Of a stretch of DNA of 64,000 nt, positions 1 through 54,800 are shown piece by piece. The DNA is from Ascidiella aspersa (lineage: Eukaryota), in assembly GCA_963924565.1 (NCBI GenBank), contig OZ004610.1, positions 8,618,001 to 8,682,000 on the forward strand, read 5' to 3'. The translations under genes and the position numbers were made by a program. Below the pieces are notes generated by a model. The model saw nothing but the letters and a program-made list of their open reading frames with translations, did not search any database and was not told the DNA's origin. Position 1 is the first letter of the stretch, and each line of letters opens with the position of its first letter.

Positions 1-471
1 CCTTGTAATCTACAGTTTAGCTATAGTATGACCACAGCATTCAATTTAGCCCTGTGATTTTGACTAACTTAGGCTTGGTATTAAAGGAACACAGTTATTT
101 TGTTTGGTGGAGGTGGAATAAATGTTTCATAAAGGTTTGTAAAGTTGCTCACGATGTAAGTATAAGATCGGCATGTAAATAACGGTTTGTTGCAGGAGTC
201 AAGCCAAAAGATGTTACACGCGCATTTAAAGAGGTAAAACGAATGCCGTTCAATCTTTCTGTTACTATTTGAGTAATTTAACATAACAGTAACAAAACTA
301 TTGAACGACAGTCCATTAGGACACTAATTGTTCGCCAACCCTGCATGTAAAGTAATCAAACAGCAAAAACGTTTTTCAACATTTGCAGAGCTAGTATCTT
401 TGTTTAATCTGAGGCACACATTGCAAATCCGTTTAGGCAAATTGTCTTAAAACACAATAAGCATTTCTTAC

Positions 472-795
472 GTTCAGTATGCATGACCTTCGCGACTCCT
501 GGATACAGTGCTTCCCGCAAGTTCCAACATCGACCCAGGAGCTCCAGAAAAAGGTGCAGGTTGCCAGGTCGAGGCAGTGTTCCGACTTGTGGCAGTAGAT
601 TTGGCCTCTGGTTAGAGTACGACAGAGGCCGTAGTTGGTTCTTACAGCCAGGTGGCAAGTTTGACCGAAGCCGACGTTAGAAGTACACGGCGTCCAAGTT
701 CCCGGTACGTATTGCCCATCGCAGAAGCAAGACTGCTGAGCTGATGATTGCCCTACCAAAGACAGTAGAACTAGCACGACTGCAGAAGTCAACAT
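472..795 (-). CDS. First coding exon of a Cys-rich + thrombospondin type-1 repeat (TSR) protein, paralogue 1; the rest lies beyond the window start
   Basis: Signal peptide MLTSAVVLVLLSLVGQSSA, an 8-Cys domain, then the TSR motif WSSWVDVGTCGKHC..Q.SRRSC. Phase-0 donor AAC|GTAAGA at 471, the same position and phase as in the paralogue exon 7749-8069. Upstream acceptor ttttcttctag at ~834; candidate 5'UTR donor GTAAGT at 1010-1015. Confidence 0.85.
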
Positions 796-1828
796 TTAGC
801 CCTGTGCGTTTTTGCCTAACCTATAGGCCTCGTCTAGAAGAAAAAGAGGTATTTTGTTAGACGCTAAACGAAAGCGGGATTTACTATCGATAGAAAATTG
901 GCAAACTTTGAAACGGTGCTGAAGATGTTTAAAGTTGCGCACAATGAGTAGCCTAGCTACAACCACATTTAAATTACATTCGACAAATCAGCTAACTACG
1001 TTATAATCGACTTACGAAAGTAAAGTGTTTATCAGACAAGATAGTTGAGTGCATAATTTACTAATAAAAGCCATTTTTTAAACGATGATAAAGATATTTA
1101 GAGTTGACAACGAAAGTACAAGCAATAGTTTATCAAAATTTAAAATAACCAAGGACAATATGCTTCAATGACATACTTAATCCAGGTTACAGACAAGGAG
1201 ATTGGTTAAGTGCAAACTTTTGTAATAAAACCGCAAACACTGAACTTTCGACTAAACGCATTTACAACGAAATTACAAGTGAAACATTTACAAAAAATCT
1301 CAATTAAAATCATTTACAGAAAAGCTACAAACAAAAAAAAGCAAATAAAAATGTTGCTAATGGCTTAGCATTTGGCCTGTGAATAATTTTTTTAAATTAA
1401 TGAATACTTGGCTTTGTACGAAATGTATTTTATCAAATGTTTGTTATAGTATCATATTCATTAAAGGCATGTACAATATTTACAAACACAACCTAAACCA
1501 AAAATACCACTTTAATTAAAATTTACATTGGCATATTTCAAACTATTCAAATACTTTTCGACACAGTTGACAACCACACACATAAGGTATAGGCTTCATG
1601 TAACTTAAATACTATTGTACTAAATACATAGCATGGCTTATTTAAAACTCATTTTATTCTTAGTGTAAAGTGGCCCTTTTTATTATTAAAGACTCACAAA
1701 TTGGCCAAGTATATTCCTTGGTATAGTCAAAACCATATTTAAACAAAAGTACAGTAAACAAATTACAAACAACAAGCGTAAAATAAAAATATGCAAATAT
1801 AATGCCCAATCAAACAATTTCGTTTAAT

Positions 1829-4800
1829 TCAATGGTGATGCCCTTCCAACGAGAAATAAACAGGCTCAGGGATGGCGGTGGCTGAAGGGGTCAAGGGCTG
1901 AAGGTACCCCGTCCCATCTGCTGCTAGTCCGTTGTACGCTGGGGCAACAATGCAAAAGATTACCAAGCTTTGTTGAACAAATGCCAAATCGGTAAGAGTG
2001 TATGAACGTTTTTTGTCGCAGTTAAAAATTTAAGTTAACAATACAAAAGGAATGTCGCAACCGAAATATTGTAAACATATTTGAATTTTCGTAAAACCTG
2101 TTTTGCTTTGATAAAGTTATCTGTAAGAACTAATAAGTAAAGGGGAAAACCATACAAAATCGTACGGTAATCTATAAACAATTAAGTTAAGTTATTGAAG
2201 GTAATGGCCTGACACTTTTGACAAAACGTTTGTTGCTTTTAAAATAAAAATAAAAAATTTTTAAATCAGTGTATAGACATGTGTTCACCTATAGAAGTTT
2301 GTGTATGATTAAACATCAACAAAACAATAATTTATTTAAGTTTTTACTTTAAATTCAACCTAAAAGATCAAAAATAACCCAAACAAAGACTTCATTCCAA
2401 AACCAACATCACAATCCCTACTATTACGTCACAATGACAATGTTCGCTCACCTTCTTCAACAGACGGAGTTGTGTCCATCTTTCTGGGGTCAATGGACTC
2501 GTACAGGGGATTTCCCTCCTCGTCCGTGTTGGATCCGAGGCCCTGGGGCCGGTGGGGTAAAGGAGGACCCCCCGGTTCCTCGTAGTTGGGGTTCTGGCCC
2601 TCTGAACGAAAAACGTGGTCGGCGCTGGTAGGCATTCGTCGGATCGCAAGACTGTCCATACTGTAAAAGTTAGAAAACTTAAATTAAAGCTTAAAGCACT
2701 TGTTTGGTTTTCAAACTTTTTAAGTCATAGATCCATTTGAGACATTATCAAGCTTATGGATCTTTAATTAATGTAACACGTAAATTTTAAAACGCATTGA
2801 TCAAACTAATTAAATAGTTATCAACATTATACCTAAAACAAATTTATATTTAAATACAAACTATATTTATAAAAAAAATTGTCATTTTTAGAGTAGTGTA
2901 GTGCACGTACAGGCCCCTGTAGTCATTTTGCAGACCACTGTATTTGGGAAGCACTGACATCAGTCTTAATATTTCATTTTGTGATTTAATTAAAATAGTT
3001 CTTACAGTGTAGTCACAAACATTTTTATAAGCCAAGTAGCTTTAAAAAACAGCAGGCAAGTGTTTTTTCACTGGAATTTAACGTAAGAACGAAGTAAGTC
3101 ATTTTGAAAGAGTGATGCCTGATCGATCTTGCTTGAATTGTCGTTAAGTCCCTTGTTATGAGGTAAGTGATTGTTTCGCATTTCAGCATTTGCTGCCCTT
3201 GCTTAAAGTAACTTGTAACCGGAAATCCTGTATGTCACATGGGCCACGAAAACTGTCACAATGTTTTTGTTCATAACTAGACGCAATTATTTAAAAAAAC
3301 GCATTGTTCGCTGTAAGTCGTGTTTGTTTAAGGGAACTTTTTTATTTTTATGTGAATTGAACTTCGCATTTTGGTAAATCGTTGATTTGAGTTTTGAAGA
3401 CAGTGATTTGATTGAGCAGTGTTTTGTTTGTTACGTACAATCAAGTGCTTTACGTACGATCAAGTGCTGCAGACGAAGTTTTGTACAATTTTGTGCAAAA
3501 TATATCTACTCCAAGTTTGTTCATCCAAAGTGAGCAATGGTATGGTTTGTTGTAAAATACACCGGCAACAGTGCTAACGATTTTTCTTGAAAATTTGTAT
3601 TCGTTTTAAATTCCATGTTTGACCAGATCTGCATATTGATTACGCCACTGTCAATGACGTATGCCCATAGTTATCCTTTATTTGAACTATACATAAGCAC
3701 ACCTCCGGTGTTCAACACTCACCCCGACGATTTTTTTCTTCTTGACACCAAGCATGCGATCACAACGATACAAATGCACAGGATTCCAACAGAACCGAGG
3801 ATGGCCGCTAAAAGAGTGACGTCAACCGGTGCCGGCGGCGCCAACTTGGCCGGGGTGTTGGCTTCGGTTTGAGGGGAAGTACCGCCCGCACCGAGTGATG
3901 AGTTTGCTGTAAAAATCGGAAAGACTTGTAACTAGGAAATTTTTTTATGACCAATAAAAATGATTTATTTTCACCTATAAAATTAAAATATTGATAAATT
4001 TTGACCTATAAAACTAAAATTTTGAAATTGACCTAAAAATTGCCTAACCGTTATTACTTGTTTTTGGTGTTTTAGTGACCGCCAGAAAATCAGTTATTTT
4101 TCGGGTTTTTCAAAACTCTTGAAAATGCTTAGTTAATATGTTTGCATATCAAAACGACAAAGATCTATAAAAACATGCAGTAAAACCAAGACAGTTGGCT
4201 ATTTGAGAAAATGTTGTATAAACAGCCTATTAGTTGAAATTAAAAAAGAAATTCTAAAATGAACAAAGACCTATTATCGAAATGGCACTGAAAAAAGACA
4301 CAGCAAATCTTGATGAATAAGTTTGTCTGAATCAGAGATACACAACTATCTAAAGTTCGAGCTGAACTGAATGCGTTCTTTTTTGCTCCAACGAAGTTCA
4401 AATATAAGCTAAAAACATTCCTTTAGGTATCATTTTTAATCAAATTCAGTATTAAATTAGCGGGTAGCAATCATCCTAACAGTGTGTAACGATTTAGATC
4501 ATATTATGCAAATTGCCAGTGTGCTGTGAACCTATGCATATCGTTTGTCTCTCATGAATTTCCAGATTAACGAGAAAAAAATAATAGGAAAGCCTTCTGG
4601 AGTTTGTTCAACGTCATTGTTTCGAAAAAAAGTCAAGTCGGTGTCTTTTGTCTGGAGTTATTGGTGAACCCCTCTAGCACAGGAAAAGCTAGGCTGTCAA
4701 ATGGAATCAAACAAAACTGAAAATAGTCTCGTTTTGGGTGCGACGTGAAACACCGGTAAAAGTCAAATCGTGGTAAAAATTTATAGCTAGGTGAAACGGT

Positions 4801-7800
4801 AAATTGGCGAAAAATACCATTTTGTCGGAGATTAGGTGGGTTGAAGGGGTTAATTGGGTTCAAAACTCCTATAACCTCTTTCAAGAATGGTTAAATTGTT
4901 GCTGTTCAACGGGATTCGTTTGATTGCGTTTGTAAAAGTTGCTGCTAAATTTGTAACGTCTTAGCTCGTCTTAAAGTTCCAACCACGCAGTTAGACGAAG
5001 AAACAAAGTCGTGCGTTTAGTTGTAACTGACCAACGCGGATTCGAGGCCGCCTCGTGTGCTGTTTTGGGCTTAGCGTAATGCAGCGACGCTTTAGTCAGA
5101 AAACGACTTCAGCAGTATCGTCATGACATAGTGTTATTCATGGAGAGACCGTGTAAAGTATTTGCTCGCTTCTCAGAAGCCTCTTAGTCAAAACGCAAAA
5201 ACGGCACATGGTATGGTGAGATATTCCATCTGTCAAACGTTGACATACTTTGCGTTAGGCTTTAATTAGATATTAATTGAGTATTTGCATTGCGATCCAA
5301 CGGATGCATGCGTAATATTTGATATTCTTTCACAAAGCACAAATGACGTATAAGCGGGTAAATACAATTTGACAGTGCAAGCAATGAATTTTGCTTTCAA
5401 AGTACACTCATCAGTAAGCCCTAAAAGTTGCTCAAAATAGTTAAGTAAAGCATTACTGGAAAAATGAACTTGAAGTTGATTGTTGTTTTATATGTGGCCC
5501 TTAAACAACTTAATAAACCGCAGGCTCTTAAACTAAGATTTTGCGTGTTCAAACTGTTGATTCAAACTCAAAAATTGATAAACCAAGTTTTATTTCAGTC
5601 TTCAATTGCTTGCATCTTTAAAGAGCGCACTTACTTGTAAAACTTTCTCGAAATTCAAACTGAGAACCACAATCTAAGAACTTTTTTCCCGACAGTTTAC
5701 ATAAATATGTCAGTAAGATATTAACATACGAGTCATTTTCAAACAATTAATGTGACTTTGATTTCGGTAAGCCTCTCCGAAGGCATCTTGTGTAGATGGC
5801 ATACGATCCGGAAATGTGATGTAATAGTGACAAACGTGACGTCACATATTTCAAACACTTTAAGGTACTTTTAATATAGTTTCGTCTTTCAATCAAAATG
5901 TATTTTACCTTGAGTCGAGAACGGAAGTCCATCGGAAATTCTAGGGTCAGTCGAGATAGGGTTGTTTCTTGTTGATCCATGAGGTTTATTTGGTCTGTTC
6001 GGTGTGGTTCCAAAAGGCGGCGTGTTATTGATCGGTCTCGTTCTTATTCTGTTTACATGGTCGGTTGCTATCGTTGTCGTTTTTGCTGTTGATTTTGTTG
6101 TTTTTGTTGTAGTCGGCCTTTTCGTTGTGGGTGCTACTATAGTTGTTGTTGTTGTTCTTGGTATGTAATAAAAGCAGAATAAGATGGTACAGTTGTAACC
6201 TACGGGGTTGGCGAGATGTATAATCAATCTAGGTGAAAAGATAACAGTGGTAGATTTTCCACTTTAATCCTATTCCCTAGACGTTTTGGTTAAAAAATAT
6301 ATAATATATTACCATGGGGTCAACCTATGTACAACACGAACCGACATAAATCAACCTTACCAAAAGTTTGACTTATTTGAATGACTGAAAGTAAATTTAT
6401 TTTAAAACTAATCGTAATTGGTATATAAAAGTCAAACATTTGCACTTACTGTAGTAAACTGATTTGATTTGATTACCATTAGTATTTTGTAAAGCAAACA
6501 TCAAAAATAATGTCAATAAATTTCCACCAAAGAAACAATCGAAGCCAAACCTTTTAGAAAGAATGAGATAATTCCATTTTAGTTAAGTCTTGAACTAAGT
6601 GATTACATGGCTTCTGTTTTGGGAGCCTAACTGAAATAAGCTCCATCCAAACAAAGTTTAAAGGAAACCCCAAAACTAGCATTCCTAACATTAAAACTGT
6701 CTTACCTGACACAACTCAATCGGCTCAAGCATGTTACGTTCCTCGTTTCTTCTGATTTTCCATTGCTTCCCAGACAAGAGGTTACGCGCACATTTCCCTG
6801 GGTGAAAGCAAAAACAAGGAGTCAATAACACTGTTCTAAAGTCATTTTAGAATGACTAAGTCCCAGTAAGTCATTTAAAAAATAACCTCAAGTCCAAGTC
6901 AAGTCGTTTGCAACCAATAAGAAGTCAAATCTCTCCAAATCATTATGAGAGCAAACCAACTTTAAGTCAAGTCATTCACAATAAAATAAAACAATTAACT
7001 AATAAAGTTGGTAAACTTGTCCGATAATTATGAGAGATCCCCAAATAATAACAAAAACGCAATATATAGCAAGACAATTGTTTTACGTGCAACAATTAAG
7101 AAAAACAAAAAAAAAATTAATAAAAACACATCATTTTAACCCAAGTTATATGACAAAAGACTTAAATCACAAGTCAAGTCATTTGTCAAAAATACTTGAG
7201 GCAAGTCAAGTCATTTTGACAAAGAACAATTTAAGTCATACTCTAAATTTTAAATAAAAAAAATGGTTTTAAATTGCTAAAATTGATGATTTTATCCGTC
7301 ACCAACATTTGATGTCCATCACATCGCAACCAATGTAAAACTGTTTGACGCGTTAACTTGAATTAAATATCTAAATTATAAGAAGGATGTAATAACAATA
7401 AACACGCTGAGTTCAAGTCATTTGCATAAATATATCGTAAAAGCCGAATCATCTGGTAAAAGTAGAAAAGGTTACATTTAGCTATAATGAATATCAGCCC
7501 AAAAACAACGAGTAAACAGACATCATCTTGATAAAGATTTCAGTCACATTATCTGATGATGAAACAAGTGCGTAAACGTCTTTATCAAAATGGTGTCGAT
7601 TTATTCGACATTTTTGCCTTTGACGTTCATCCCAAGCTACATTACAGTTCCGTGCATAATGTACCATGTTTAAATAAATAAATAAAATACGAACTTAAGT
7701 TTACTAATTTACGAAACGATTGAAACACTGGCTTAAAATTACACTCACCTGCCGATAGCAGTATCTTGCCGAGGGCTGGACGCCAACACCACATCGAGTA

Positions 7801-8069
7801 CTGCATCTTCCAACACTCGACCATTGACTCCAAGAACCAAGGCAGGTCGACCTGTCCAAGCACCTCACTGAGTCTTTACAGCGCACTCCGGACTTGCAAA
7901 GCACTGTTCGTTGGCGTGTGGCCTGGTCGCAAACCTGTCCTAACCTTTCGTTTGACCTGCACCCAGTTGTCTTTACCCTTAGGCTTTTGCAAGTGCATCT
8001 TTGGGCGTATCCGCTTGATATTGACAGTAGCGTTGCTATGAGTATTATTGCAAATGGCTTTAAATTCAT
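1829..8069 (-). CDS. Type-I transmembrane receptor: signal peptide, 8-Cys domain, TSR, Thr/Pro-rich stalk, TM helix, tyrosine-motif tail (387 aa, 6 coding exons)
   Basis: Exons 8069-7749, 6797-6706, 6156-5909, 3906-3723, 2660-2452 and 1938-1829 join with GT-AG boundaries and matching phases (0,2,1,2,1) into 1164 nt ending in TGA. TSR: WSQWSSVGRCSTRCGVGVQPSARYC...C...C...C. Stalk: TTTTTIVAPTTKRPTTTKTTK. TM: LLAAILGSVGILCICIVVIACLV, followed by SRRKK. Tail: NPNYEEP, NPLYESI, AYNGL, GYLQP, PVYFSL. Confidence 0.85.
6830..7250. repeat. Dispersed repeat (probable MITE) rich in AAGTCAAGTCATT motifs
   Basis: Many CAAGTCAAGTCATT units. Related patches occur at ~10240-10320, ~22120-22240 and ~27866-28230. 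Boundaries are approximate. Confidence 0.55.
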
Positions 8070-24500: not shown

Positions 24501-27184
24501 TACGTCATCGCGGGGCGTATAAAACAAGTAACGTTAGGAAAGCTGTGGTCATAGTTCGATGTCGTGCACAAGTACGCAACTAACATTAAATCGTCGTTTA
24601 ACATCTTTAGTGGAAAAGCCTGGTAAAAAAAATACTTTTTTTTTACATTTGAAAACTTTTTTACCGTAACGCCGTTCCGGGTCGTGCCAACTTACTTTCA
24701 CAACTGTTTTTTCACGACTGGTAGGCCTGATGCCTTAAAAATGTATAGCATGTTAAAAAAAACACTGCTAGACGCCCAACTATATATATTCCACTTTTGG
24801 ACACTTTTAAATCAGCCAACACATTTTGTTAATTTGTTTTTACGTGGCCTTTTTCCACCTTCATCAGGGTGGCAAAATAAAGGTGTCGCCTAATATTGAC
24901 GCCTTTAAACTAGCTAAGGGTTTGACAAACGGCCTAAAATAGATATATTGAAATGTATGCTTATTATAGCTTTAGAGGTGATAAGTATGAAAAAGAGCCC
25001 GCTGCTATTTTGGCATTAGGGCGTGATTATAGGTAATTGGTTTTAAGCTCCTTTCGCCACTGAGATCTACGCCACCTGGAGCGGTTTGTTTCTCGCGTGA
25101 GATAAACATCGAGAGATAGATCTAGCTGATAAATATTTTCTTAGAAATTAGGACTGTAGCATTCGCCGTTGCCATTACAAGAAGCATGCCTTATTGTGTT
25201 TGTGTCTTTCAATAATAGTTGCAACCTGTTTAGAAAATTAATTTTTTCAATTAGTATTACCAAATAAGTACTAAACGTTTGTGAATAAAAGGTTTTCCAA
25301 AAAACTTTTAATTTTTGTTAAAGCTGATCATTAGAAGGCCGTTTCTTGAATTGGTTGATTGTCGGAGTCTGTTTTTTTGTGACTTCTATCAATCTTTAGG
25401 CAAGTTTTTATTTTTATTTATTTTTTTTACCTACGTTTGAAACGATATTTCAAACTTACCTAGTTTAAATTTTAACGGGAAAAGTATTGTGTTACGATTT
25501 TCCAAATCAATTTGCATAGTTTGCAAACTTTTCAAACCCAGGTTTCAAGCGCTTATCCGGCGACCATAACAGGGTTAGATGAAGGTCAAGCAGCTGTTTG
25601 TTAAGTGGCCCGTACAAACCGGTTAACGTATACCAGTCGTGTCGGAACTTAATATCGCGTGACAGCACTTGAAAGTGACTCGCATTTCACGGAAACGAGG
25701 TCAAGGTTGCTTCGCACGCTTCTACTTGAGCTACTCTACTTTAAGGCGGCCACAAGAAAAGAGAGCGCTTTTAATCCGGGTCGACGCCGGGCAATTATTC
25801 CGCGGCGGCACACGAGCAATATGTTTCGGCGGTTTTGTTTGCGCGTAGGTCGCGGGCAAGAAACTGCGTCGAAATTGTTTCGCCACCGCGAACAGATGCG
25901 CTTGCGAAAGGTTGGAAATTTGGAATTCCAGTTGCGGTGACATGAGAAATGTCTCATTTTGAACATTTTTCTTCACCTTTTCTTTAAGTTCGACGATTCA
26001 AAGTAAACCTTCTTGAAACTGTAGCGAAAAAATGTTGCGGACTGAAAGATGTTTTCCAAGCTCAGATTACGTGATATTCACCAACCAAGAGATCAATCAG
26101 GAAACCATGCGGTGGTTTAAGACGGGTCAAAGAAGTGTTTCCGGGCTTAACAGGCAAAACTTTGAGATTAAGAACATAGTACCTTTGTTGCTAACAATTA
26201 TGGATAGAGTGCGGAGTCCTCGCCTTTATACTCAAAATACAACGAAGAGTTACATAAAACTTTAAAGCATAGTGGTTGGTGGTTGTGATTAGTAGGAACG
26301 TCAAAGCCCATGTAGAAGAAGCTTATAGGCAGGGATGGGGGGCGATTAAACGCACTCCATAACCCAATTTCGGCGGAAAAATAAACTCCTGAGACGAGAG
26401 TCAGACTCCGGCCAACTTTGCCGACTTCAAGTTCCCAATCAGGCTCCGACTTAACAAACTTGTATTCCACCGACTCACGTGGCTAATATAGGGTGAATAT
26501 GCAGCAATCCACTCGAGAGGGGTCATGTAACTTATCCATATAACCCATGTTAAGAAGCTGAAATAATGTTCTTAAAATATATTTTTTTTTACTTAAAAAT
26601 AAAACGCAACATAAAAATTAAACGAAACAAGCCAAATATATCAAACACGTGTAGTGTGTAAAAAGCCTGGACGGTGTTTAAATATCCACACTTTTCACCT
26701 ACAGACTGCAGTGGGGTGGAAGCAAATGGGCGTTGTTTCTTCCTGATGGATGACGAGGGAAAAAAAGACATGCTGCCTTACCACGAGGCCATGGTGGCCT
26801 GTACCCGGCGCAAGGCGCACCTGGCCCACCTGGACAGCGCCAGCGTGTACAACCGGGTGTACAAGTACATCGAGCGGAACGCCAACGACTTTCTGCACTC
26901 GGAAAAGCAATACGTCATCACATGGACGGGAGCGTCGTACGAGGTGAGAATAGAACAAGATGTAGCACAGACACACAGACACATATATACACACATGTAT
27001 AGAAGTAAACTGACCAACAGTACACGCATACGAACAAAGACAGACAAACTACGCACAAACACGCACACATACCCATACATATGCACATATAAATAGATAT
27101 ATACAGATAAACATATACACTCACCCATACGCCGTAGGAAAACACACAGACTACAGAGGTACATACAAACAAACATACACACAC

Positions 27185-27224
<40 letters not shown>

Positions 27225-30003
27225 GCATGCATAAAAGTTACCGGACAAACCGGTTCACGAAAACAAAAAAGAAAAAAAATGAACCTCAAACAGGAACATA
27301 CATTAGCTCACTTTAAGACAAGCTCGGAAGTCGATTAATTTCAACTTTTAAAACGTCTAAAGCTGTTAATCCAATAAGTAAAATATCAGAAGAACTTTGC
27401 CAATCAGATTTCCAACAGTGTTGGCGCATTATATTTTGACTTGGCTATTTTCGACAGAACTCCACGGTTTTCATGGGCAAGCGAGCCTCCAGCTTCGTAC
27501 ACTGGGCCAAGCATCATCCGTTCAACATCCCACAGCGGAACAAGATAGCCCTGGCCGTTTCATTAAAGGGTGGTCAGAAGCATATGCTCGATGTGATGCC
27601 AAATTCTAGCTTTTACCCTCTCTGCGAGCAACAACTGAGAGGTAAAGAACCTAGGGGCTCACTGTACGTCGGTCCCATAGCTGTAAGAAATAAATGAGTG
27701 CGGGTTGCGAGCGCTGGGATCGAACCAGCAACCTCATGCATGCGCCGAGTTAGGTTACGATCTGATGTCGCTGCTGCGATATCCGGATTTCGAACTGTTT
27801 GGCATTTTTCTTGGAAACACTGCTTCTGTATTATGGAAAGTAACATAATTGAGCCATGTTACAGCAGTGTTGTAAACAAGTCTTTTTAAAATGGCTCCCA
27901 GCAGTCAGGTCATTCGTGAAATAATTCAAGTCCATGTCAAATCCTTTCAAACAATAACTTGAAGTCAAATCACTGCTATAAAAATACAACGATAAATTTG
28001 TAAAATTAGTAAACTCGGTCGATAATGAGCAATACGCCAACTACAAAATAACGAAAACGCAACATAAAGCAAGCAAATTGTTTTGTGTGCAAAAATTAAT
28101 ATAGATAGCTCAGTTTTATAATGAAATGTTAAATGATAACACTTAATTTCAACCCAGGTTTTGACTCTAAGATGTATTGCCAAGTCAAGTCATTTGCAAA
28201 AAGACTTGAGTCAAGTCATTGAAATCATTAGTGACAGGCCGCTGAGCTGGACTATTAAAACTCTTGGATGGCTTTTTGGACTTAAGTGCACGTGCAATCA
28301 AGCCCGCAATTGTTTTGCAAGCATTCGTACAAGTAGCGACATATACAACCACGGAAGTAATCGCTGCTCTTATTGGAACCGACTTTTTCTAGTCATTATT
28401 TCTCAGAAAAAAACATTTATTGCCCTTTATAGTAAACGTGGTAATTTTCGAGAAAATAGTTGTGCGTTCCTACTAAGTAAAAGGGCGCACAGTTTCTTTC
28501 TAAATGCCCCTTTTTTCGGGTATTAGTGAAAACAAAAGTTGTAGCATTCAACGAAATTTAAATGAAATATGTTTTTAGATAATCACAGTTTTTAGTGTTT
28601 AAAGTCCAATTTGTTTCCTGTGTGACCAAGTTTCTTAAAAACTAACCATGTCAAACTTTATTGCCGAACATAGAAAAAAATCTAAAAATGTTTTACTTCA
28701 AGGAAAGCTCACAGTTTAAATACAAGCCTTTAATTACGTCTCACCTCGTTTCGCGAGAGACGGCTTTTCCGAATGAAGCGCCGAATGTTGTTCCAAAACG
28801 ATTGCTACGTTTTTACCCACTGTACAATATTAACCACTTGCTACTTTTTGTAACGCTTTTTGCCCTTTAGCATGCTGATGCGTTGTCACACCAGTCGCGA
28901 TCCCTTTGCGTTTTGAACAGCGCCCCTGTTGAAAAGTATCTAAGAGTGTGTGTTAAAAAATATTCGTGCTATAAAGCTTTGAGTGTAATGTCAAAACAAT
29001 TACTACAAGCTTTTAAAATACAGGTTTAAAACACAGGTTTAAAACACAACCCTGAAATGAACCATGTGTAGCTGTTTTCCAAATCGCATTTTTTTCCATA
29101 TTTTAGTTTGCGAAGGCGTCCTCTACCTGTCGCGCTGCTTTTTCCTGCTGGATTCCCGCGGCATCCCGGACATGAAGACCTTCAGCAACGCCCAACAGGC
29201 CTGTCGGGCCAAGCAGGGTAAACTGGCCCTTATGGACAGCGCCGTGGTGTACGACACCGTGTACGAGTTCGTACTCAACAACTCGCACGATTTTCTGCAC
29301 ACACAGCATGAGTTTGTTGTCGCCTGGACAGGAGCTCTGTATACGGTGAGTTACAAAGTCTTGCGATTGTAATGGTTTAATTAGGTCATGGGTCACCAAA
29401 TACGACTCGTAGCATGTCTTAGCCCATTTTTTTTTTGGTAACGATATAAAGGCGTTTTGCGCTTTTCAAGAAATAATATTTTCTTTGTAATATAGCCTTT
29501 GTATTGAAAGCAAGACCTCTCCAACCTAAAACTTCAACAAAATATACGAACTGTGTGGTGTTCTTAAGGTTAGTTTTTGTAACGCCACGTTGGACTTAAC
29601 TTTGTGACGTCAACTTTTGACGTTACTTTATTACGTCACGTTACACGTAACTTTGTGACGTTATCTCCAAAAACACGTCATGCCCCCCCCCCCCCCAACA
29701 AAGATGTCCCAAATCCGCCTAACATTTACTTGCATTGCACAAAGATAGGTTCCCACACTGATAGGATATCGAATAAAATGTATACACTCGCATAACACAA
29801 TCCAAAACTTGACGCAGAACTCAACTCTCTACCTCGGCGAGCGAGTTTCTCCCTTCGTACGTTGGGCCAAGTACCTCCCGGTCCAGTCGCCAAGCAACAC
29901 GCGCGTTGCCATGGCAGTGGCGCTGGAGCCAGACCGCCGGGACATGATTAACGCACGTCCGACTTCCAAGTTTTATCCGCTGTGCGAGAAGACGGTGCGG
30001 TAA
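21561..30003 (+). CDS. Secreted lectin: signal peptide, Cys-rich N-terminus, coiled-coil neck and two tandem C-type lectin-like domains (360 aa, 6 coding exons)
   Basis: Exons 21561-21762, 22504-22536, 26705-26943, 27458-27641, 29107-29345 and 29818-30003 join in phase (1,1,0,1,0) into 1083 nt. Signal MHKSTLLALVLAGHCLICAA; neck VARLEKRVERLSEALRKVKTETK. CTLD pattern C..GRCFF..A..AC....AHLA..WTG...W......YPLCE occurs twice. AATAAA at 30259. Confidence 0.85.
26960..27230. repeat. CA/TA-rich low-complexity tract with a (TA)n microsatellite, in a lectin intron
   Basis: acacacat/atatatat runs; (TA)n at ~27188-27218. Source of the spurious ORFs 26778-27248 and 26918-27289. Confidence 0.9.
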
Positions 30004-42800: not shown

Positions 42801-45800
42801 GTTTTCCGTCTTCGTCCTTAAAACCTCCAAACTGAATGAAATCGTATGTCTTCTCCTTAATGGCGCGAGACGAAGCTCTGAAAACAATTCAGTTCATAAA
42901 ATGCCAAGTGCGAACTGACAGTGCCTTGCCTAAACTGTTATGCTTTAAAAGAGAAAGAAAGAACAGTACTCATTGTTAGATCACAGTCGATATTTTAAAC
43001 AATGCCGAGAAAAACTTTTGGATTCAAATCTCTATTTGATTGAAAACAGTCCATTGTTAGATAACAATTCAATATTTCAAACAGTGCCAATTTTAACTTT
43101 TCGATTCGAAACTGAGATGGTTGTGTAGAATTGTCTACTATTAGATTTTAGTCGGTATTTTAAATAAATTCTATATTAGGAGTTTTATTTAAAAATGGAC
43201 TAAATTGAAAGAAATGCTTGAAAGTTATAAATGACAATTTTTCATCGATTCTAGTCTAAAAATGACACTTTAGTTATTATCGAACATTAGTTACGAAAAT
43301 AAACATTAAATTGAGGGAGAAATATATTTACCAAATTATTTATATATTCAATGTCAAGAATAAAAAGTTCGCCTTTCGTCTATTGGTTTTCTAAACTATT
43401 TTGAATTCTACTTGAACCTTTCATCATTACCAGGCAGAATGGCTCTGGCGTTCAAAATATCAATGCGAAGCAATTTGTAGAAATAGCAGGTTACTAAGTT
43501 AGCAATGTCATATTGATGGCTTTTAAAGACTTATTAAATATAGCACAGTTTCATTTAATCATAAACCACAATCATTAGCATTAGATTCTTCAATGGTCGT
43601 AAAGGTTTTTCAGGTGTTTGACTTCTGGCAACATATAAGAATGGTTGTTTCCAGAGAAAAACAAAAGAACAACTAAACTAAAAATTAAAATCCGTCATTA
43701 AATATTTTTAATATTTTTTAAAAACAAAAATCAAGTGTTTTTAATCAGGTTTTAATCATAAACCACATGCTTATTAGAATTAGATTCTTTATTGGTAGTA
43801 AAGGTTTTAGATTGACCTATGGCAGCATACAATGATGGCTATTTCCAGACAAAAACTAAAAAACTAAAGACCAATTGAAAATTTGTCAGTGATAATTTTT
43901 ATTTATTTTGTTACAATTCTAAGAAAAACTTTTTCTCATAGAGCGCAGCATAGTACGACCTTACTTATGTTTGTTCCATACAACTGTACTTGTCAGTACT
44001 CACAAACATTGGCTATAGCCTATAGCTAAAACACAACTTCTTTAAAAAAAATATCAACCTTTGGGCCAAGAGGTCTAGAGACTCATTTCACCAAGCAACT
44101 TTACACCGTACTGATTTTCCAAATTGCCTACAAATGGACCGTTTGATTTTCTAAATGGCCAAAGTGACCTTACCCTGGTTTAACAAGCATCCTTCCCTTG
44201 ATCTGCCCAGTGTCGTCACCCTTTCTGGTCAATCTTTCCTCGAACATTTGAGGGTCGGTGCCGATCATTGAGCGGAGTGCAAGGACACACTCGGCTGTAG
44301 AGGAACAAGACAGGTTACTATTTCTCATCTGGTTTTAAATCAATCGTAAAACTGTCCTTTCGAGAAATATTTTTTTATTAAGTGTACCGACGTTTCGATA
44401 ACCTACACAGGAATTCCTTCTAAAGATTTCGTGTATGGGTTATCGAAACCTCGGTACATTAAATAAAAAAAAACATTGGCCGTTTTAATTGGTACAATGC
44501 CTTGCAGCAACAGTATATTCGTTGAATCCAAAGGACTGGTTTTAAATGCCCTTTAGTGTTTTATCGGAGCCAATTCGATATTAAGGGTTAAAGGCATTTT
44601 CAAAGGAATCAGTTAAACGAACCGATTTCTCTTTAAAAAAATAATTCAACTGTCGGAAATGGAACTTTCACAACTAAATGTAACCCAATTATGGCTCAAT
44701 ATCATGGTTATTGGTCAACCTAGTTTTTGCATGCCTGATTAAGAAAATAAGATTTGGACGTTTTTTTTAAAGAAATACCCTAAAAACGACCAACTGTTCA
44801 ACAGACGAGTAATGAACAAGAACAGACATTTCGTTTAAGCAACAAATGGTTTGGCAAAAAATAGAATTCTACCGTTTCAACGAACCAAAAAACATAAAAA
44901 AAATTCCCACTTTCGTAAAAATTAAATTACACCGTTCGCAACAGGAGGAAATGTATGAGGTATCTACGGTGTGGGTGTTTCAAGTCAAAAAGTGTGAATA
45001 ACTGAATAATCTTTAAAAAAATCCCATCTCACCGTGTACTTCATTATCGTCCTCAGCTCTGACAGAGACGAGAATATGTTGATCGACCAGATATTCTCGG
45101 TCGGCGATGATTGGCTTTAGTTGCTGAAGACAGTCCTTGCTCCAACCAATCCTCACGTAATTCTGACCTAAATCCTTTGTCTCAAACCGGTTGCTGCGCT
45201 TGCTCCTGATGTATTCTGCGTGGGGCAAAAACACTTTTGTTGTTTTTTTAGACATTAAATGGCAAAAAAGATTTAAAGACTGACTTACGCTTTACTTCTA
45301 AATCGCAAGGGATACATGCAAATTAGAACCAAATTAAGGTTTAGGAAAAAAATAGAAAAAATATGTTTCGGTTAATTATTACACTTAAATTATAATAAAA
45401 AGCACTTTTTATGCATCTCTTAATATGTATTTTGGTCGTGACAAAGGGTCCTTAATTTTGGTTAGGGTTCCTTCAGTTTAAAATTCGAAAGGCAATGTTT
45501 CACCTTTAAATGCACATGCAGTCATTCATATGGGGAATTAATCACGCTACTTTTCAGAAAAAAATATTATTCTGTTTTTACTCGTGTTTTTCAACTTCAA
45601 TTTTAGTTGTTATTGCACATGCCGTCAATAACAGTCAACAATACATACAACTAAAGGTTTTATAGAACTCACTGGTGAGGCATACTGAGTGGAACTGAAG
45701 ATAGAAGGAACTCTTCCCAGGAGCCTTCAGTATAACTTCAACATTCTCAAAGCTTATAGAAGAACTGTCGGCAGGATAGTCGGGCGATGAGCGCAGACCT

Positions 45801-51800: not shown

Positions 51801-54800
51801 AGAAACCATGTATTATAGGCAAATAGTACGGCCGTACTTAAAAAAAGTTGACAAAGATATTATAGAGATTATAGGCACGTACGGTAGTTCATTTTTATGT
51901 TTTTTTAACTGGGTCGAAAAGGGAACTTTTTGTAATGGTAAAATGAATCCTGTACACTACAGTAAATAACAAGGTATTAACTGGTAAAACAATGGGCTTA
52001 CATAAGCTTGAGTAGAAATGTACCTAACGTCAAACGCACAAAACGAAAGCTCACGAATCAAAACAAAGTTTTATCAGACTGTTATTTGAAGGCCAAAACC
52101 ATCAAACATTCCCCAAAGAAAAAGTTGCGTGAAAAACAATAAAATAACTCAACACTCACCCATGTTCCAAGTTCCGACGAAGAGTGATACGCAGTCCGGT
52201 TCGGCCGAGGAACTGTGTCGGTTCCTTATGTACTGGAGCAGCTGGCAGAATGCCTCGCGGTGAGCGCTCTGATCAAACGCATACTCGCGTTTCTTATTTC
52301 CCTCGAACACGATCGCCAGCTTCGTCTTCGACTTGTTGTTTTTGATGATCTGAAGTACTGCGAAGAGATTTGATTGATTGATAGAATTTTAGGAGCAAGG
52401 TTACATTTTATATCTACTTCTTTGGGCCTGAACGTAACATGTCAGCTTCGTCTTTTCTAGAGCAGGGGTTCCCAAACTGGGGGCCATGGCCGCAAAAAAC
52501 GTGAGTATCGGTATCAAAATAGCATGTTATTGGACAACCCTAACAAGTGTACAAGAAAAGTAGCAATATATTACTACAAAGTGGGCATTAGAAAGTTATT
52601 GATTACCCTGTGTGTGATCGTATTCATTAGAGGTGCCGTCTCCCTTCATAACATGCAGCCGTCCTTTCGTCACGTCCAACTTTAGTCGTTGCTTCATCGG
52701 CATCTTCAGAGCGCCTTCCTGCTTCACCTGCGAACAACCGTGAAACTTTTTTATTCTCAGTCACATTAACTGATGTTAATACAATTGCGTAATCGAAAAG
52801 TCTTAATTAAGATAATGTCGATCTACTCGACCTTTTTGGCTTTGCAATTCATTATAGAACTATCTAGTTGCCCAAGTCTACCCCTAGGGCTAACAACGCT
52901 TGCGTTTATCGCATAACTTTTATGGGGCTGCAAAAAAGCGATAGTTTTATTTTAAAGTTTATTAGCACTCAATATTTTTTAAACACACACATATTTTTTT
53001 ATATATTTTTTTATGTATTATCCAAACAATATCTGACATTACTAAGTTAATTTTCGGAATCAAATTATAAGTTCTACAGAAATAGTACACCGAAAGCCAT
53101 CGCAGATTCACTGAGTCTGTTGATCTATGATGCAAGCAGGGCAGATTAGAAAAACAACTAGCCTGCAGTGAGGTTCGAACTCACGACCTCCGGTCAAGCC
53201 GGGACCGTCGCTCTACCAACTGAGTTATGCAGGCTCAGAAGGGAACGAGTCGAGAAACAACCATACGCCAATGCTTGCGTATGCAGAAATCTACAGAAAT
53301 AGTTAGCAATTTTTCAGCATTTTTTTACAAAAAAAAACTATTTCTGTCGGAACGACCTTGCGGTAAATAATTTTTGCAGGTATATACACAGGAAAAATAT
53401 GTTCTTGTTTACCAAGCAATCACTCAATCCCCTAAAAAGGTTTCCTAAGGTTGCTTGTTTTAGACATCCAGTTATGGCGTGACTTTGTGACGTCATCTCT
53501 ATTAATTTTCACGACTTTCCGAAAGAAAATTTTTCATCGTTCCGGCAAAAAAATATTCTACTTTCACCCCTGTGTTAAGTCATTTCAGCACTGATATGTT
53601 TTGGAAAGCCTTACCTCAAAAATCCTCTCAGTGAGCGGGGGAACCACCCTGGACTGCTTGCGGGGCAGGTTCACCTTGGGCGTCCCGGTTCCACTCAGGT
53701 CTGCCAGTCTGCCGCAAGCTCTTCGGTTTAGGGACTTCACCACGGCCTGGCAATCGCCCAAACGACCCAGAAAAGTGTCGAGGTCCACGTCTTCTCCATT
53801 CTAAGCAAGCCGAAATAACCAACCAAGAAAAACTGCCAGTGTCGTAGTTTAGTCGAGTAACTCGTGTTGATTATAGCGTAACTATTTGCCATGAAGTAAG
53901 TCGTAATTAAGAGTAACGCGTTTTGCCAAATAACAAGTATTTCAAAATGTCAGGTAACTATTTGCCAAATAACGAGTATTTTTAAATGTCAGGTAACTAT
54001 TTACCAAATAACGAGTATTTTAGAATGCCGGGTAACTATTTACCAAATAACGAGTATTTTAAAATGTCAGGTAACTATTTACCAAATAACGAGTATTTTA
54101 GAATGTCAGGTAACTATTTGCCAAATAACGAGTATTTTAGAATGTCGGGTAACTATTTACCAAATAACGAGTATTCTAGAATGTCGGGTAACTATTTGCC
54201 AAATAACGAGTATTTCAAAATGTCAGGTAACTATTTACCAAATAACGAGTATTTTAGAATGCCGGGTAACTATTTACCAAATAACGAGTATTTTAGAATG
54301 TCGGGTAACTATTTACCAAATAACGAGTATTTTAAAATGTCGGGTAACTATTTGCCAAATAACGAGTATTTCAAAATGTCAGGTAACTATTTACCAAATA
54401 ACGAGTATTTTAGAATGCCGGGTAACTATTTACCAAATAACGAGTATTTTAGAATGTCGGGTAACTCTTTGCCAAATAAAGAGTATTTTAGAATGTCAGG
54501 TAACTATTTACCAAATAACGAGTATTTTAGAATGCCGGGTAACTATTTACCAAATAACGAGTATTTTAGAATGTCGGGTAACTATTTGCCAAATAACGAG
54601 TATTTTAAAATGTCGGGTAACTATTTACCAAAGTACCTCGTATTAAAGAGTATCGCGTTTTGCAAAATGTCGGGTAACTATTTACCAAAGTACCTCGTAT
54701 TAAAGAGTATCGCGTTTTGCAAAATCCAGAGGAATACCAGAGTTTAATCCAGAGGAATACCAGAGTAGCGTAATTACTCGGCCAATCAAAGTACGACTCA

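Follow-up and report, generated by a model that had tools for sequence, protein, structure and literature searches.

Two receptor genes at the locus

The window analysed here is a 64,000-nucleotide stretch of Ascidiella aspersa contig OZ004610.1 (G000:C4:8618001-8682000), taken from a 309 Mb, intron-rich genome. Its left end carries two paralogous genes on the minus strand, designated A and B, each encoding a single-pass membrane protein headed by an unnamed eight-cysteine domain (hereafter the tip) that is probably derived from a thrombospondin type 1 repeat (TSR); the pair itself is real and both genes are intact. Gene A was modelled in six exons encoding 387 amino acids, with an open reading frame (ORF) that starts at position 8069 and is intact. 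Gene B was also modelled in six exons (371 amino acids, ORF start at 795, intact), the part beyond the window being completed from the left flank.

Both models have canonical GT-AG junctions and open frames. The original prediction of a common phase-0 intron was borne out, as each gene has this intron three codons past the third cysteine of the TSR (7748/7749 in A, 471/472 in B), and beyond that prediction the phases of all five introns (0, 2, 1, 2, 1) are identical. The two proteins also have the same domain order, with a putative signal peptide, the eight-cysteine domain, a six-cysteine TSR, a Ser/Thr-rich stalk, a single membrane helix and a cytoplasmic tail of about 110 residues. The features are as follows, in window positions unless a genome location is given:

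7749..8069, minus strand: gene A exon 1, 107 codons (signal peptide, eight-cysteine domain, first half of the TSR), with a phase-0 GT donor
8004..8069, minus strand: gene A putative signal peptide, residues 1-22, assigned from the hydrophobic N-terminus, without a signal-peptide predictor
7842..8003, minus strand: gene A eight-cysteine domain, residues 23-76, Cys gaps 1,9,9,10,5,5,5, net charge +9, no aromatics
6706..6797, minus strand: gene A exon 2, second half of the six-cysteine TSR, end phase 2
5909..6156, minus strand: gene A exon 3, Thr/Pro-rich stalk, end phase 1, carrying all three listed amino-acid variants of A
3723..3906, minus strand: gene A exon 4, end of the stalk, membrane helix (~3746-3820) with a Cys near its inner end, basic stop-transfer, end phase 2
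2452..2660, minus strand: gene A exon 5, cytoplasmic tail with NPNY and NPLYESI (2492-2512), end phase 1
1829..1938, minus strand: gene A exon 6, end of the tail with the GYLxPLTP and IPExVY motifs common to B, stop codon
472..795, minus strand: gene B exon 1, 108 codons
G000:C4:8617839-8617745, 8617292-8617096, 8613996-8613825, 8613057-8612858 and 8612092-8611965, minus strand: gene B exons 2-6, left of the window, phases as in gene A
556..735, minus strand: gene B eight-cysteine domain, residues 21-80, Cys gaps 1,11,9,10,9,5,5, net charge +1, six aromatics, W-x-x-C kept

Expression was inspected in a single RNA run (X3), of which about 6% was read. No spliced reads crossed the junctions of gene A or gene B, which counts against the proposed models, and exons 2-6 of gene A had no depth except in repeat-derived bins. 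A depth of at most about 2, in one orientation, was found over window 321-1600 and downstream of the gene B stop. The gene A stop and the gene B ATG are separated by about 1 kb (window 796-1828), with an AG 7 bases ahead of the gene B ATG, and this gap contained a few RNA reads in a single orientation. A long 3' untranslated region or a transcript shared by A and B across it is possible. The first intron of gene B also contained an 84-base, 77% identical copy of the gene B start region (G000:C4:8617878-8617955; L034:7878-7955), about 40 bases before exon 2, and no further copy of it was present among the loci compared with it.

An old pair of paralogues

The motif C-x-C...C-x-SN-xxx-GQ-x-C-xx-A-x-R-xxxx-LC...C-xx-S-xx-CLD-xx-TC, from which the two genes had been recognised as related, was found unchanged in the exon 1 translations of both genes, directly ahead of a WSxW motif that begins three residues past the eighth cysteine. 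All eight cysteines of the two domains aligned and 15 of the 46 aligned non-Cys positions were identical, giving an alignment score of 85 (shuffle mean = 23) that none of 2000 Cys-fixed shuffles reached. The residues between the cysteines, described earlier as largely diverged, are so in absolute terms, but the domain (23/54 identical) was no more diverged than the TSR behind it (19/58). The description of the genes as paralogues encoding type I surface proteins, with a domain named by no library, was upheld.

Genes A and B are an old pair and do not form an array. A tandem array continuing leftwards had been expected, but of the family only the rest of gene B lies to the left of the window, and the next gene beyond it is a CH-domain gene of the plus strand. 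Hidden Markov models (HMMs) of six parts of the pair matched only A and B in the surrounding 213.5 kb (G000:C4:8518501-8732000), where no third copy was found at a meaningful score. At the genome level, protein searches with exon 1 of A (at least 47 matches), exon 1 of B (at least 3) and the membrane exon (at least 3) returned A and B as the only clear matches, these counts being lower bounds and the last-exon search failing to recover even gene B. The remaining matches were weak and mostly ordinary TSR halves; a third membrane-exon match was set aside as it sits among cadherin-like exons. Full-length A recovered B at 102 bits, compared with 24 bits over the domain alone. The cluster of many paralogues expected of polymorphic allorecognition receptors of the fester or Themis type was not found at the A/B locus.

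Origin of the eight-cysteine tip

No Pfam family matched the tip at E-values up to 10, and no PDB sequence matched it either. In the Atlas, exon 1 fell with TSR clusters (0.92), while the domain alone reached 0.80 at best; one 128-residue chordate cluster, with TSP_1 in 27% of its members, was present in the match lists of both. Searches of public protein collections used single exons as queries: exon 1 of A matched none of 18 longer candidates, alignment A2 matched none of 118 longer and none of 2 near candidates, and exact look-up gave 0/2. The single match of the domain profile among 1.84 billion representatives (E = 8e-4) was a SEA-repeat protein, considered spurious, as was the one locus retained from 47 pattern matches in a metagenome scan, which lies antisense to a bacterial ribosomal-protein operon. 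These blanks are weak evidence, because a search with A would recover B from the 1.84-billion library at no better than E = 3.9. A literature search, judged at the listing level, found no published description of genes A or B.

Profiles were then built for eight cysteine-rich module sets from the host genome. The best match to the A/B domain was obtained with 27 ADAMTS-type TSRs (hhalign score 18.6, probability 21%, E = 0.001), on a profile to which the true TSR of the two genes scored 23.3. This alignment paired the W-x-x-C of B and the C-x-x-[GA]-x-R...C with TSR strands A and B, leaving a six-residue insertion, and its score was reached by 1 of 100 and 2 of 300 Cys-fixed column shuffles. 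The pooled TSR set gave 2/100 (local) and 8/100 (global) shuffles, the spondin-type profile was at shuffle level (10/60), and two other TSR sets had hhalign probabilities of at most 2%. The gap of 10 between Cys4 and Cys5 of the tip equals the C2-C3 gap in the TSR of A itself. Laminin-EGF (37/60), PSI (29/60) and somatomedin B (18/60) were rejected as being at shuffle level. A three-finger or activin receptor ectodomain was also rejected, as the C-terminal C-C-x4-C-N is absent from both translations and the PF01064 matches lie elsewhere.

Several observations weigh against a TSR origin. As the ADAMTS-type match is the best of eight profiles and its register was also seen by eye, its corrected p is about 0.05-0.1. 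With hmmsearch, the domain did not rise above Cys-fixed shuffles for any of four TSR profiles (best 54/500), and the tip locus was not among the matches listed for Pfam TSP_1, TSP1_ADAMTS and TSP1_spondin (150 candidates scored per search). Aligned singly, A and B took differing registers on the ADAMTS profile, and MAFFT paired the last cysteine otherwise than the proposed TSR register does. The stacked Trp/Arg layers (WxxWxxW with RxR) are absent, the tip having no Trp in A and one in B, and this layer is described as defining the TSR fold (PMC2173040). AlphaFold2 gave a pLDDT of 38 from the two domain sequences and of 49 with 26 TSRs as the alignment, a design that is circular and had no positive control, and the latter model matched no TSR. 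Three fold searches with these models, which are too poor to show any fold, returned nothing significant.

Taken together, a degenerate TSR, named in the original prediction as one of its possible refutations, is the best-supported origin of the tip, although with modest significance (2/300 shuffles, eight profiles). From the profile comparisons we lean slightly towards this origin; a fold of its own is the less probable alternative, and another known fold is improbable.

A candidate distant relative was found at G000:C2:10039250-10044790 (minus strand; L036), encoding roughly four TSR-like units, most of them worn, followed by a Thr stalk, a membrane helix and a Pro/Tyr tail that terminates in G-x-Y-L-x-P. 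It was the best outside match to exon 1 (31.8 bits) among 170 loci compared, a point in favour of the TSR origin. The locus was picked post hoc, however, 7 of 500 Cys-fixed shuffles of its upstream unit scored as well, and its intron position differs.

Second module and charge of the heads

The second module of both proteins is a six-cysteine TSR, with a WxxW in strand A, an R-x-C in strand B, two Trp only, and a match to a profile of 80 host-genome TSRs (34.2 bits for A and 23.1 bits for B; hhalign probability 97%). The POFUT2 site C-x-x-[ST]-C was absent from both modules, tip and TSR. The head of A is strongly basic (domain +9, TSR +6) with a tip devoid of aromatics, whereas the tip of B has a net charge of +1 and six aromatics. 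As basic TSR faces are described as binding glycosaminoglycans (PMC2173040), the basic head of A likely binds polyanions and that of B a different ligand.

Tyrosine motifs of the cytoplasmic tail

All four tail tyrosines of B were matched in A, in the same order and at near-equal spacing (27, 28 (18+10) and 16 in A; 27, 27 and 14 in B), and the last exon was similar between the genes (z = 7.9 for exon 6). Three motifs are common to both tails, N-x-L-Y-E-[ST]-I, G-Y-L-x-P-L-T-P and I-P-E-x-V-Y. The A tail possesses two NPxY and three Yxx-hydrophobic motifs, while B has NRLY, without Pro. A motif check found no ITIM, ITSM or ITAM in either tail. YE[ST]I and YxxP/YLxP fit the consensus of Src homology 2 (SH2) ligands, and the B tail also fits the Dok consensus, Y/M-x-x-N-x-L-pY, for which no supporting passage was found in the literature. 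Phosphorylated NPLY/NxxY is described as binding phosphotyrosine-binding (PTB) adaptors such as Dok1 (PMC4479986), and NPxY together with YxxL motifs as driving engulfment receptors (PMC8092387). The NxLY and YxxP motifs point to signalling through PTB and SH2 adaptors.

Age, selection and polymorphism

The proportion of synonymous differences between A and B was 0.65-0.72 (dS = 1.5-2.4), and the duplication is old. Nonsynonymous divergence (dN) was highest in the TSR (0.92) and the domain (0.74), and lower in the helix (0.35) and in a hand-picked block of the tail (0.24). The dN/dS ratios were below 1 (0.21 in the helix, 0.41 in the domain), these values being rough because synonymous sites are near saturation. 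The outer parts evolve faster than the helix and the tail motifs, yet below the neutral rate.

Variation was assessed from two DNA runs (X1 and X2) of one study, which possibly include the animal from which the assembly was made and whose contigs collapse alleles. In exon 1 of gene A, no difference was present in the covering X1 contig and 2 in 334 bases in X2; as mostly intronic X2 contigs had 15 differences in 1598 bases and 9 in 700, this exon shows no excess. Exons 1-3 of gene B had at most one difference, in a 2665-base X1 contig. Among the 40 variants listed per set (with a further 76 and 208 beyond), coding differences numbered at least nine, including five synonymous ones, three changes in the A stalk and one in the B tail. 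The view of the locus as a fast-evolving, hypervariable recognition locus was not sustained, with exon 1 no more variable than introns and dN/dS below 1. These variation data argue against hypervariability without excluding it, because collapsed contigs hide alleles.

Neighbouring genes and other TSR loci

To the right of gene A, the window contained two similar C-type-lectin-like exons (26662-29372, plus strand; one weak Pfam match, E = 0.065), a SHIP1/2 C2 exon (45013-45291, minus strand; Pfam E = 2e-11) and a tandem repeat of about 33 bases giving long open frames (53900-54750). In the left flank (L026-L028), the ORF listing showed retrotransposon-like ORFs, presumably reverse-transcriptase- and integrase-like by their motifs. 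Some 55 kb further left than the window, one ORF (L026:4626-5348, plus strand) encodes a Cys-rich stretch together with a worn TSR-like unit and one membrane helix, and was unmatched by Pfam and by the A/B profiles.

Elsewhere in the genome, an intronless ORF of 3380 codons (G000:C3:33861982-33872121, plus strand; L078-L079) encodes tandem TSRs of alternating types, with 53 six-cysteine units by pattern. A dispersed and tandem family (L151-L153, L155-L161) encodes intronless proteins of about 470-560 amino acids that combine three TSRs with Gly/Tyr/Pro/Gln repeats and an N-terminal region containing Cys.

Comparison with known systems

SBSPON, composed of a somatomedin B module and a TSR, resembles A and B in having an eight-cysteine module directly ahead of a TSR, but the somatomedin B Cys gaps (3,9,1,3,5,0,6) differ from those of the tips (1,9-11,9,10,5-9,5,5), and the profile match was at shuffle level. 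The second module of A and B is like TSRs of group 1 and of the ADAMTS type (PF00090, PF19030; PMC2173040) in its six cysteines, WSxW and R-x-C. The tip matches weakly the first half of the ADAMTS-type profile, and differs from a TSR in its eight cysteines, a first Cys loop of nine residues (three in the TSR), its zero or one Trp and the absence of a Pfam match. A precedent for the loss of most Trp/Arg layers is described for the TSR-like domains of midkine and pleiotrophin (PMC2173040); these are secreted factors, however, and their family PF05196 was unmatched at the A/B locus.

Among receptors, CED-1, Draper and MEGF10 resemble A and B in crossing the membrane once and in combining a Cys-rich N-terminal module with NPxY and YxxL-type tyrosines in the tail (PMC8092387). 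Unlike these, A and B lack EGF/NIM repeats, an ITAM and the C-C-x-G motif that ends the EMI matches of the host genome. CED-1/MEGF10 may serve as a working analogy, without membership, as only the NPxY-type motif is common. The Botryllus fester family co-receptors (PMC12582321) and Ciona Themis (PMC8849226) are tunicate surface receptors like A and B, the co-receptors having tyrosine tails. They are described in these sources as Ig-superfamily, PKD1-like or fibrinogen-like proteins, often highly polymorphic and multi-copy, whereas A and B are two TSR genes without ITIM or excess variation (in collapsed contigs).

Proposed mechanism and alternative explanations

Our working interpretation, which we hold as about evenly balanced between right and wrong, is that A and B are intact, anciently duplicated single-pass membrane proteins, each with a tip that is likely a degenerate TSR stacked on a recognisable TSR, and that they likely act as adhesion or uptake receptors signalling through phosphotyrosine adaptors. 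The gene structure, the domain order, the TSR, the membrane helix and the conserved tail tyrosines are established; beyond this anatomy, we infer the following steps. The TSR scaffold would be built from the last six tip cysteines, its first loop being longer by six residues, and a fourth disulfide would come from the N-terminal C-x-C. The two modules would make up a rod raised on an O-glycosylated stalk, on which the strongly basic head of A could bind polyanions such as sulfated glycans and the neutral, aromatic head of B another type of ligand. Ligand clustering would then lead a Src-type kinase to phosphorylate NxLY and YxxP, recruiting PTB adaptors (of the Dok, Shc or CED-6/GULP type) and SH2 adaptors, which may remodel actin or internalise cargo and so result in adhesion or uptake. 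A more far-reaching version, which we regard as doubtful, is that the tip is a ligand-binding fold not yet described, or else a four-disulfide TSR without a Trp ladder, heading a co-expressed pair of one cationic and one aromatic receptor, and that different heads were swapped onto a shared signalling tail feeding a PTB-adaptor pathway also used by the CUB receptor arrays of the same animal.

The most serious alternative keeps the receptors as described and makes the tip a separate small disulfide-rich domain unrelated to the TSR, for instance a hairpin with Cys3-Cys4 as its closing bond and the C-x-C as a clamp. The lack of Pfam and PDB matches, the Atlas value of at best 0.80, TSR HMM scores at shuffle level, an AlphaFold2 model that took no TSR fold even when given a TSR alignment, and conserved SN, GQ and CLD residues that lie outside the TSR consensus all favour it. 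The ADAMTS-type profile match speaks against it, and the negative searches and models have little power, so we judge it somewhat unlikely. Less likely still, though the chief competing view of the tail, would be endocytic or sorting receptors whose NPxY and Yxx-hydrophobic motifs serve trafficking, with no kinase signalling. The best-kept tail motifs, YE[ST]I and YLxP, fit SH2 ligands instead, and the NRLY of B lacks the Pro; on the other side, the tail of A has both kinds of trafficking motif, and NPxY motifs are described as mostly mediating trafficking (PMC8007030).

That the genes are highly polymorphic receptors for self/non-self or gamete recognition in an expanding cluster is improbable. 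In its favour, the two genes lie in tandem, their outer parts have diverged, the charge of their heads differs, and they have tyrosine tails, as do tunicate allorecognition co-receptors (PMC12582321); but there are two copies only, exon 1 of A and exons 1-3 of B show few differences in the collapsed contigs of the one study, the high dS goes with dN/dS below 1, and the tails have neither ITIM nor ITAM. Finally, one or both genes could be silent relics, or the models could be wrong, as the absence of spliced reads and of depth over gene A exons 2-6 in the small part of the RNA run would suggest. Twelve exons with matching phases, zero stop codons and dN lower than dS after near-saturation of synonymous sites make this very improbable.

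Under the favoured interpretation of the tip as a worn TSR, the pair would show how far this module can drift under continuing selection, losing its Trp ladder and gaining an extra pair of cysteines, and would be a caution that TSRs can lie hidden among the 'unknown' cysteine domains of such genomes. If the tip is instead a fold of its own, it would offer a small, expressible structural target. On present evidence, the A/B pair does not open the question of allorecognition. Either way, it joins the orphan receptors with PTB-type tails in the same animal.

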